Source of the DNA: an uncultured Methanoregulaceae archaeon
GTDB lineage: Archaea > Halobacteriota > Methanomicrobia > Methanomicrobiales > Methanospirillaceae
Direction of reading: 5' to 3'
Assembly (NCBI GenBank): GCA_963701095.1
Contig: OY969564.1
Span: forward strand, 1,504,001-1,568,000
Length of the DNA: 64,000 nucleotides
Below are positions 48,049 through 51,089 of the stretch, one piece after another (within the stretch, counting starts at the first letter, position 1; the number at the start of each line of letters is the position of its first letter). Below the pieces are notes generated by a model. It had not been told where the DNA came from and made no database searches. It saw nothing but the letters and a program-made list of their open reading frames with translations. The position numbers and the translations under genes are program-made.

Positions 48049-48160
48049 AGATGAAAGAACAATGCTGATAAGGTATATATTTTCCTCAATTTTTCATTCT
48101 ACGCACAGTTATCAGCCTCAAGCGCCAATAGATTGGCAACAAATGGTAAGGTAATGTGTG

Positions 48161-49100
48161 ATGAAACACCAGTGCGATGAACCGGTTACCCAGATGCATA
48201 TCAGGCCGTCCATGACTGTCGGAGAATTGGTCAATGCCATGGGAAAAGCCGGGGCATACAACGGCGGCTCACTCTATCATGCAGCAGAAATTTATGAAAA
48301 AATGCTTCGGGATAGTGGCACGACAAAATTCTTTGGCCTGGCTGGCGCTATGGTCCCAGCCGGTATGGGTGGGATCGTCTCTGATCTTATAAGGGACGGT
48401 TATATCGATATCCTTGTCTCTACCGGGGCAAATCTTACGCACGATATTATCGAAGCTATTGGCTGCCGGCACTTCCACGGTTCAGCCTTTACAAGCGACA
48501 TCGAACTCCGGCACGATGAAATAAACCGTATCTACGATGTTTATCTTCCTAACGAAGCCTTCGAACATTTCGAGGTTTTCATGCAGGATGTTTTTGGTGA
48601 ACTTGAGCCTAATAGCACCATCTCCATTTCACGACTGCTGCGGCACATCGGTTCGCATCTGAAAACCGGTATTCTTGCAACGTCCGCACAAATGGAAATT
48701 CCGGTTTACTGCCCGGCGGTGCAGGATTCCATGGTCGGTCTGCAGTACCTGGCTCTTTTCTCAGACTACCAAGGTGACCGTTGACGCATTTGCTGATATG
48801 CCTGAGCTGCTTGACACCTGCTTTGCAACAAAGAAAGCCGGTGCTATTCTCGTCGGAGGAGGGGTTCCCAAAAATTTTATTTTGCAAAGCATGCTTATGA
48901 CTCCGAACGGTTTTGATTATGCAATCCAGCTGACGGGGGACCGGCCGGATCTTGGTGGCCTGTCAGGAGCAACGCTCGACGAAGCCCGATCGTGGGGCAA
49001 GATCACCGAAGAGGCTCGTGCCGTCACAGTGTATGGTGACGCCACGATCACCCTGCCGGTCCTTATCGCGGCCGTGATGGAGAGGTTATCCCATGCCTGA
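48161..49100 (+). CDS. dys: Deoxyhypusine synthase (frameshift at ~48749)
   Basis: STGANLTHD, INRIYD, GGGVPKNF, GGLSGATLDEARSWGK and GDATI. Confidence 0.93.
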
Positions 49101-49740
49101 GCTTATTCTTGCTCTCGATGTGACAGAAAAGAAAAAGGCGCTCGATATTGCCTGTACCTGCGCCCCGAACCTTGACGCAATCAAGATCGGTTATCCGCTT
49201 GTCCTCTCGGTTGGCCTCTCCATAGCCGCAGACCTTGAAAAAGCCGGTCTTCCTCTCATTGCTGACTTTAAGGTTGCCGATATTCCCAACACAAACAAGA
49301 TTATCTGCGATAAGGTATTCGATGCCGGTTTTTCAGGAATTATCTGTCACGGATTTCCCGGTATGGACTCGATGAAGGCTTGTGTTGCCTCGGCCCATTC
49401 ACACCATGGTGCATGCTACGTCGTTGCAGAGATGAGCCATCCGGGAGGGACCGAGTTTTTCTCTTCGGGTGTGGCGGAACGTATAGCAGGAAACGCCATC
49501 ATTGCAGGAGCTGATGGGATCATCGCACCTGCTACCCGGCCGGACCGGGTTCGGGTCCTGCGAGGTTTTGTTGGTAATAAAAAGATCCTCTCCCCGGGAA
49601 TCGGCGCACAAGGGGGGGATGCGGATGCAGTCGCCGCGCTTGTTGACGGTATCATCATAGGGAGGGCTATCTACGAGGCAGGGGATCCCGTGGCTGCAAC
49701 GCGGTCCTATGCGCGAGTCCGCAGAAGGGAAAGAGAATAA
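49093..49740 (+). CDS. pyrF: Orotidine-5'-phosphate decarboxylase
   Basis: LILALD, ADFKVADIPNT, EMSHPG and SPGIGAQGG. Confidence 0.96.
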   Translation: MPELILALDVTEKKKALDIACTCAPNLDAIKIGYPLVLSVGLSIAADLEKAGLPLIADFKVADIPNTNKIICDKVFDAGFSGIICHGFPGMDSMKACVASAHSHHGACYVVAEMSHPGGTEFFSSGVAERIAGNAIIAGADGIIAPATRPDRVRVLRGFVGNKKILSPGIGAQGGDADAVAALVDGIIIGRAIYEAGDPVAATRSYARVRRRERE

Positions 49741-49855
49741 ACAACTCTGTTTTTTCGACCCGATCCTTCATAGCGCACCCGTACGTACCGCGAATGCGAT
49801 ATTACCTTCGGAACAGGGTCTAAAAATTTATTAAGCCCTTATGCAATGTAGTAGT

Positions 49856-50217
49856 ATGGAATGGAGCACAGAACAAAGGAAAATGGCAGAAAAATACACA
49901 AAACTCGAAGAAATTCCCGAACAAGACCGAAAATACAAGTGCCATACCTGTCATCTCATCGTAGACCAGACGCCGTGCCCGAATTGTGGTGAGACAAAAC
50001 TCGAGATTATGTGCCCTCTCGACAACTGCCACTGCGTCCATGAAATGATATCAGGGATTGATTACTGCCCGCTCTGCGGTAAACCCGTCTGTCCAGAATG
50101 CGGGTCTCACGATGTTGTCCAGATCAGCCGGGTGACCGGTACCTGCAGGACGTTTCCGGCTGGAATGCTGGCAAGCAGCAGGAGCTCAAGGACCGGATCC
50201 GATACTCAATCGCATGA
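49856..50217 (+). CDS. Stand-alone NrdD-type glycyl-radical domain with Zn ribbons (one base missing at ~50139)
   Basis: Repaired frame: [42 protein letters not shown]-stop, with an ATGA overlap onto cbiZ. Confidence 0.85.
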
Positions 50218-51089
50218 GATATTACACAGACTCAGGTTCGCTTTTTGTCCGCGGTGCGTTCCGCGCCGCGAGTACCGGGATTTCCGGGGGAATCCGGAAT
50301 GTTACAACCCTTTTTAATCACATGGTCCCTGCGCAGTGGAACTATACCGCGCCTGAAAAAGAGATTGAACTGGTGGCAGCTGCTGCCGGTACCGGGCGGG
50401 ATGTTCTGGGTCTCTTAACTGCAGTTCCTATCCAGAACCTTTGCGTACTTCAATACGATTTTATCACGGTCTTTGTTACTGCGGGAATCCAAAAAAAAGT
50501 CACGGGCGCCGGGACCATAAATATTATCGCATATAGCAGTGAGGGTTTCGAAGACTCTGCACTGCTTGAAACCATTATGGTCGTTTCTGAGGCCAAGTCA
50601 GAAGCTCTGTTAGATCTTGGATTGGATTCGGGCACACCTACCGATGCTGTTATCGCCGCATGTGAAGGCGAATTAAAGCATCGGTACGCCGGACGGGTTA
50701 CCGAACCCGGACAACGTGTACGGGATGCAGTGCTCAGGGGGGTTCCTGAAGCCCTAAACCGCTTCGAACGTGATGTGCAACCCACACAACCGGCTTTCTT
50801 CATATACAGCCGATTGGATAGCGGTCATTGGGTCGAGTGGTCATCTGTTAACTGCCCATATTACCCCTGCCATTTTCAAGGACAGAGCTGCGACTTCTGC
50901 TACTGTCCATTCTACCCATGCAAAGATGAGACTCTCGGCGAATGGTCACCGAGCTCCTCAAACGGCCGCGTCTGGAATTGCTCGCGCTGCACGTTGCTTC
51001 ACGAACCGGACATTGCAGGCTACCTTAAGCACTATCCGGATGCGCCGCTCGAAGAGCTTGTGCGCCTTCGTAAAAGAAAGCTAAAATAA
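50214..51089 (+). CDS. cbiZ: Adenosylcobinamide amidohydrolase fused to a Cys-rich small domain
   Basis: VTAG, GTINII, SEAK and GTPTDAV; C-terminal CPYYPCH...CDFCYCPFYPC...WNCSRC..H. Confidence 0.85.
   Translation: MRYYTDSGSLFVRGAFRAASTGISGGIRNVTTLFNHMVPAQWNYTAPEKEIELVAAAAGTGRDVLGLLTAVPIQNLCVLQYDFITVFVTAGIQKKVTGAGTINIIAYSSEGFEDSALLETIMVVSEAKSEALLDLGLDSGTPTDAVIAACEGELKHRYAGRVTEPGQRVRDAVLRGVPEALNRFERDVQPTQPAFFIYSRLDSGHWVEWSSVNCPYYPCHFQGQSCDFCYCPFYPCKDETLGEWSPSSSNGRVWNCSRCTLLHEPDIAGYLKHYPDAPLEELVRLRKRKLK

Follow-up and report, generated by a model that had tools for sequence, protein, structure and literature searches.

Genomic coupling of two unlinked genes points to a split class III ribonucleotide reductase in Methanomicrobiales

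According to our analysis, a small Cys-rich protein encoded in the window (the whole stretch of 64,000 nucleotides that was analysed) is very probably an obligatory subunit, the smaller one, of a class III ribonucleotide reductase (RNR) of the NrdD3 type that is naturally split in Methanomicrobiales. Single-chain NrdD has barrel and radical domain on one polypeptide, and here the two were found on separate genes. The glycyl-radical enzymes described in those parts of the literature that were examined have catalytic chain and radical domain in one piece. A class III RNR whose radical subunit is detachable now appears to be at work in an order of cultured methanogens. The features of the locus are the following, in coordinates of the window.

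49093-49740, plus strand: pyrF (OMP decarboxylase, PF00215), a kept upstream neighbour (order-wide synteny by eye)
49820-49834, plus strand: archaeal BRE/TATA-like promoter, an A-run followed by TTTATTAA at 49827-49834
49856-50217, plus strand: the probable small-subunit gene of the split class III RNR, 120 aa, a stand-alone glycyl-radical domain with a Cys-rich N-terminal extension
49940-49987, plus strand: first putative Zn ribbon, C29, C32, C41 and C44, all four invariant in 102/102 aligned sequences (among the matches listed)
50012-50110, plus strand: second Cys/His cluster, C53, C60, H62, C71, C74, C79, C82 and H85, kept in 101-102 of 102 (among the matches listed)
50129-50142, plus strand: glycyl-radical loop R-V-T-G95-Y, one base of the Gly codon being absent from the assembly; R92, T94, G95 and Y96 invariant
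50143-50214, plus strand: C-terminal tail and helix of the radical domain, W-N-x-x-K-x-x-E-x-x-D-R, from the alignment; helix 105-112 in the model
50214-51089, plus strand: gene of the CbiZ family with a Cys-rich small domain (PF01955, PF04071), a kept downstream neighbour by synteny

A preliminary description of this DNA had recognised a stand-alone NrdD glycyl-radical domain with no catalytic barrel, and the profile searches agree with it. In the Pfam scan the intact orthologue P0003 matches PF13597 at positions 508-562 (E=4e-13) and no barrel is present; at E<=0.1 the scan of P0003 returned NRDD and Zn-ribbon models and no PFL-type Gly_radical match, and the NCBIfam scan of the small protein returned NrdD models. 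A profile of the small protein also aligns to the loop of P. copri NrdD (8p23, residues 697-736, E=2.6e-8). Conservation was followed in an alignment of 102 sequences, that is P0003 and 101 of the 120 listed homologues (290 were found), from which mainly truncated and over-extended ones were excluded. R92, T94, Y96, seven Cys and also G95, on whose conservation the first interpretation depended, are invariant in 102/102 sequences among the matches listed.

The large partner was found far away from the window. The sole nrdD core of the genome under study (G000) lies on contig C1 at approximately 2.4792-2.4814 Mb, minus strand, about 925 kb from the small gene; it is the only PF13597 match (positions 1-505 of 562, E=2.6e-132), has neither the Gly loop nor the Zn site, and ends at the boundary of the barrel and the radical domain. 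The preliminary description had named a check, whether the main nrdD is full length or loop-less, and the loop-less core found here speaks for the split subunit that it had listed as an option. The same architecture is seen in 29/29 fetched relatives, where the core frame ends 10-35 aa past the YFAFT motif and contains neither a CxxC pair nor a Gly loop. A small-subunit profile gave no match in six frames of the 30 core loci (G000 and the 29 relatives), and when G000 was searched in six frames for another R-x-x-G-Y/F loop, many chance matches and no second NrdD tail came up. The catalytic cysteines of the 10-stranded barrel are kept: the cysteine of PFCQ and the CYQCC finger loop are invariant in 25/25 cores. 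An NrdH-like glutaredoxin precedes the core gene of G000, and an NrdH-like motif occurs near the core in 27/29 relatives' loci; G000 also encodes an NrdH-like ORF and two FTR-like genes. The NrdG2 activase gene (TIGR02495, above cut-off) is located at C1:876053-876604, outside the window, in keeping with the earlier remark that the window holds no nrdG. A second NrdG-like radical-SAM gene, G000:C1:1274338-1274775, scores 108 bits with TIGR02491, below cut-off, in a different gene context, and is probably not an RNR activase.

Taken from one complete genome, the core aligns to residues 1-686 of Methanothrix NrdD (741 aa) with 72% identity, and the small protein of the same genome, C79-R118, aligns to residues 699-738 with 70% identity, so that the two products form a complementary and non-overlapping cover of the full-length enzyme. 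The cut site in Methanomicrobiales coincides with the border of the core (123-671) and the glycyl-radical domain, GRD (676-739), of P. copri NrdD, whose tethered radical domain was reported as highly mobile, as given in the available portion of that paper (PMC11226230). In a tree of 53 cores the cellular split cores make one clade (SH-aLRT 95) that adjoins 26 full-length NrdD3-type proteins (98), with three viral split cores outside on long branches; the tree was built in quick mode and gave long-branch warnings, and the order of events is not derived from it.

The distribution of the two genes supports a functional link. A core ending at profile position 505-516 is present in 81 genomes out of a draw of 91 from Methanomicrobiales, and one small gene is present in exactly these 81; ten genomes have neither piece and none has one piece only. 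All ten belong to genus g68, which may be Methanocorpusculum, and these co-losses count as one evolutionary event since they come from a single genus. When five g68 genomes were rescanned for the small gene, weak Zn-ribbon matches were all that appeared (5/5), and in the 3/3 tested g68 genomes NrdG2 was not found and the class I/II-type RNR was kept. Outside Methanomicrobiales, in a draw of 121 genomes of the phylum, NrdD matches cover the whole profile except for pieces at contig ends or flanking insertions. A full-length NrdD was found in 1 of the 81 genomes, G027, in addition to its core; this extra gene (C1:590703-592373) is divergent and lies beside a transposase-like ORF. One more genome, G201, has two cores without a radical domain and one small gene (C1:285076-302511).

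The preliminary description put forward as its headline a spare part analogous to GrcA/YfiD, which would rescue full-length NrdD after cleavage by oxygen. The resemblance is real: like GrcA/YfiD of E. coli and Y06I of phage T4, the small protein is about 120 aa long and consists of an added N-terminal half and a C-terminal Gly-radical domain, it would act in trans, and viruses also carry copies. Moreover, a homologous family in Methanosarcinaceae (f7; 5/14 genomes) has four members in genomes with a full-length NrdD that has its own Gly loop. However, G000 and 79 of the other 80 gene-bearing Methanomicrobiales genomes have no full-length NrdD that could be repaired, and the small gene is single-copy and exactly tracks the truncated core, which makes a repair role very unlikely as the general explanation. 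For G000 itself it is refuted, the core being truncated and devoid of the Gly loop. This genome has no intact NrdD, so that the radical must normally be carried by the small protein. Other differences point in the same direction. GrcA/YfiD and Y06I serve pyruvate formate-lyase (PFL), whereas the small protein, judging from its domain matches, would serve NrdD; unlike a GrcA repair part it would be obligatory, its partner never having a loop of its own; and the N-terminus of YfiD is disordered, according to the portion of PMC8683613 that was available, whereas that of the small protein is predicted to be a folded Cys-rich module (pLDDT 82-89). Two features of GrcA, the PFL-type domain and the full-length partner, are missing here, and the second of them is found, on the level of genes only, in the f7 cousins.

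These cousins deserve attention on their own. At E<=1e-10 a profile search for the wider family gave 119 cluster representatives, mostly stand-alone proteins of 80-165 aa with a Cys-rich front; the radical Gly is present in 49/49 rows of the diverse alignment A4, which is a biased count, the rows having been selected for the loop. Branch A5, with Methanococcoides and Methanohalophilus as named members, accounts for the 5/14 sampled f7 genomes and is related to the small-protein family with an hhalign probability of 99.9 over 68 columns; outside Methanomicrobiales no family other than f7 was found with A5 at E<=1e-22. Of the five f7 genomes with an A5 copy, four encode a full-length NrdD that has a Gly loop of its own; the fifth A5 copy looks truncated. 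The loci L177-L180 (G098, G086, G079 and G137; for instance L177:2482-2838) encode stand-alone 118-aa radical-domain proteins of a second type in genomes that each hold two full-length NrdD matches, and two of these loci have a desulfoferrodoxin-like ORF nearby, as judged by eye. They are the best candidates for true spare parts. In P0124 a cousin-type radical domain is fused to a radical-SAM NrdG-like domain, which speaks for the split reading but weakly, since the protein comes from a single 1.9-kb contig and could be a real fusion or an assembly artefact. In several divergent stand-alone homologues (P0324, P0355, P0345, P0283, P0358 and P0404) the sequence is interrupted directly past R-V-T-G, two of them resuming after about 11 foreign residues and the others continuing as unrelated sequence; such breaks could reflect small introns, or mobile elements inserted in the codon of the radical Gly.

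Alternatively, the small protein could serve some other partner as a free carrier of the radical or as a metal/redox sensor, the core being activated otherwise or inactive. Half of the protein is indeed a novel Cys-rich module with no clear structural match (best Z 2.3), and 32 of 35 viral records with the gene have no core. We nevertheless consider this highly improbable in view of the exact co-occurrence with the core in cells, the adjacency to the core in three viruses, the intact catalytic cysteines of the core, and a loop region that is 70% identical to NrdD3-type enzymes. The viral counts come from two profile scans that are narrower than alignment A4. In 3 of the 35 viral-contig records with a stand-alone small gene it lies directly ahead of a core without the radical domain; these pairs sit on large archaeal-virus-like contigs (L256:8568-12653, L213:7863-10771 and L240:9782-12528), and in two of the three a gene for the FTR catalytic chain comes next. 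The order in L256 is small gene, glutaredoxin, core and FTR catalytic chain, with thymidylate synthase upstream. No core was found in the other 32 records, including 8/8 records that are at least 90% complete, and NrdG2 was not found in the same eight. In viruses with the small gene alone, its product may act as a spare part. The viral locus L262:9956-12138, with a 52-aa radical-domain ORF followed by an nrdG-like gene and a partial NrdD core, is possibly another split arrangement. Annotated phages gave 23 matches and no full-coverage relative among them; the match in PhiF1 is a full-length gene of 596 aa.

Could the two halves be joined into one working chain, post-translationally by trans-splicing or by recoding? 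Long insertions are found in many Methanomicrobiales cores, and intein Pfam matches exist in related full-length proteins. Yet no intein family matches the small protein, the tail of the core is short and variable, a conserved Cys module forms the N-terminus of the small protein, and about 925 kb separate the genes, which leaves joining hardly credible. The insertions are a phenomenon of their own: many cores of genera g3, g4, g5, g6 and g14 reach frame lengths of 1170-2000 aa and contain, at recurring positions, one or two long insertions that are probably inteins.

The proposal that we deal with a pseudogene fragment or an artefact can be practically dismissed, and is refuted by our data, since the frameshift, even though it hits the catalytic Gly codon, disappears with the restored base, relatives are intact, and the median dN/dS of the gene is 0.08. 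The frame runs from ATG at 49856 to TGA at 50215-50217 once one base is added, and it breaks within the Gly codon of the RVTG-Y loop at 50138-50139. One extra G after 50137 is present in Logan contigs of 4/4 runs compared, as the preliminary description had anticipated when it supposed one base to be missing from the ORF of about 120 aa; the missing base is an assembly error, because the contigs of all four runs carry it. In run X5, from a different study, a 151-nt Logan contig differs in the extra G only. RNA run X13, also one of the four, contains relatives of the small gene at 85-99% identity, its contigs being uninformative on expression level or transcript start. The assembly contains a second indel error, an extra base at 48748 that is absent from short-read contigs and splits the deoxyhypusine-synthase-like gene (window 48158-49100); the large nrdD and the class I/II-type RNR of G000 are broken into frames as well. 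The small ORF is intact in 18/19 relatives' loci and in 79/80 loci of the Methanoregulaceae type, the dN/dS value refers to 2113 of 2415 pairs of 70 genes after exclusion of pairs with pS outside 0.05-0.7, and a relaxed C-terminal motif of the protein occurs once in the entire genome, at the small gene. The gene is real and conserved.

What the N-terminal half does is less evident. Eleven Cys are present, one fewer than the twelve first counted, and the conserved clusters are candidates for the additional metal sites proposed earlier. The first putative Zn ribbon, whose four Cys would bind metal, is absent from full-length NrdD and weakly resembles ribbons of the Spt4 type (E=0.0017 with the Spt4 model, below cut-off). 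In a search of longer proteins the N-terminal 70 residues were not found in full-length NrdD, and the matches were mostly confined to the final 33-38% of the query. C79/C82 in the second cluster match the Zn site of NrdD at its second Cys pair; the other ligand candidates probably stand in for the first pair and may make up an additional site. With the 102-sequence alignment AlphaFold gave a mean pLDDT of 82 and the mentioned 82-89 for the Cys module, and from the single sequence an uninformative 48. A Foldseek search with the model found nothing at E<=0.001 (the best being P. copri NrdD 8p39, E=0.36) and VIA-align gave a best Z of 2.3; neither result demonstrates a new fold. In current databases the small proteins appear as 'RNA polymerase subunit/Spt4', 'oxidoreductase' or simply NrdD. 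Our analysis corrects this annotation, the small proteins having been mislabelled and the cores looking truncated.

The large gene encodes the barrel with the active-site cysteines and stops where the radical domain should start, and the small gene, as homology shows, encodes the Zn site and the Gly loop. From NrdD/NrdG chemistry, the following course may be suggested for the split enzyme. NrdG2 from a third locus would generate the radical on Gly95. The Gly95 loop would then dock non-covalently in the barrel beside the finger-loop cysteine, as the tethered domain does in single-chain NrdD, and H-transfer from this cysteine would begin nucleotide reduction. Electrons would probably come via NrdH and an FTR/FDR-like protein, genes for both being present. 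Speculatively, the N-terminal Cys clusters could replace the lost covalent tether as a folding or docking module for the core or NrdG, and the subunit could be exchanged after oxygen cleavage, which at Gly95 would cost a 13-kDa part and not an 82-kDa chain. The binding of the two chains and the formation of the radical are what we infer.

Several facts count against the split reading. The genes are unlinked in cells, the small gene sits amid the unrelated pyrF and cbiZ, and G027 has the extra full-length NrdD. The class III enzyme may be dispensable, because these genomes also hold a class I/II-type RNR. In addition, docking in trans is not trivial, because in the YfiD work, as far as the accessible text of PMC8683613 goes, loss of PFL residues just ahead of the Gly loop abolished binding. 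We would also put forward, quite tentatively and leaning slightly against it as a whole, a broader picture in which the 13-kDa protein is a renewable radical cartridge and the barrel is reused, viruses carry only the cartridge and use the core and NrdG of the host, boosting dNTPs, and the Methanosarcinaceae homologues repair cleaved full-length NrdD; a free radical domain may have predated the split and permitted the loss of the tethered copy.

Single-chain NrdD remains the closest known system, particularly the NrdD3 type of Methanosarcinales and Methanotrichales (structure of P. copri, 8p23), with the same barrel, finger-loop cysteines, Zn pair and R-V/I-T-G-Y loop. Electrons in the NrdD3 type reportedly pass through NrdH and ferredoxin-disulfide reductase, and NrdG2, NrdH-like and FTR-like genes are likewise present in G000. 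In contrast to single-chain NrdD, the radical domain is here a separate, unlinked gene product with about 70 extra N-terminal residues and up to nine further Cys, and the Methanomicrobiales core lacks the first Cys pair of the Zn site. A comparable division is known for the class II NrdJa/NrdJb of Pseudomonas aeruginosa, a barrel chain and a C-terminal Zn-finger chain, and in the part of that source at hand a split RNR is described for class II only (PMC9669993). Class II, however, uses B12 and its small chain carries no stored radical, whereas the detached piece would here serve as radical reservoir, and in cells its gene is not adjacent to that of the barrel.

A 2026 review, in the sections available, has spare parts identified for formate lyases only and leaves class III RNRs to other reviews (PMC13450708). 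Spare parts beyond PFL are called an open question there and speculative in PMC8683613, again in the portions available. Our literature search, to which Wei et al. 2014 and 2015 (NrdD2/NrdD3) and their supplements, where a split could be mentioned, were out of reach, found in the texts partly available no account of a split or stand-alone class III NrdD. A detachable subunit makes the question of spare parts beyond PFL directly testable. The split also separates activation (small protein and NrdG) from catalysis, which would be of use for EPR and structural study of the loop movement from activase to barrel, and it offers a natural template for oxygen-repairable glycyl-radical enzymes. Viruses with the radical piece alone would have a very compact auxiliary metabolic gene.

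As to its expression, the gene has a TATA box of its own, as had been noticed earlier, and a TATA-like motif stands 27-29 nt upstream of ATG in 69/70 related loci. The mRNA is probably leaderless, because this spacing puts the start of transcription at or near the ATG. The small-gene stop overlaps the start of the cbiZ-family gene (ATGA), and it would be logical to suggest from this overlap that the small gene probably heads a two-gene unit. In most Methanomicrobiales loci viewed the CbiZ-family gene overlaps or closely trails the stop of the small gene; we know of no link of this Cys-rich gene to RNR. By eye, the order dhs-pyrF-small gene-cbiZ-RPA is kept across Methanomicrobiales families in nine loci.
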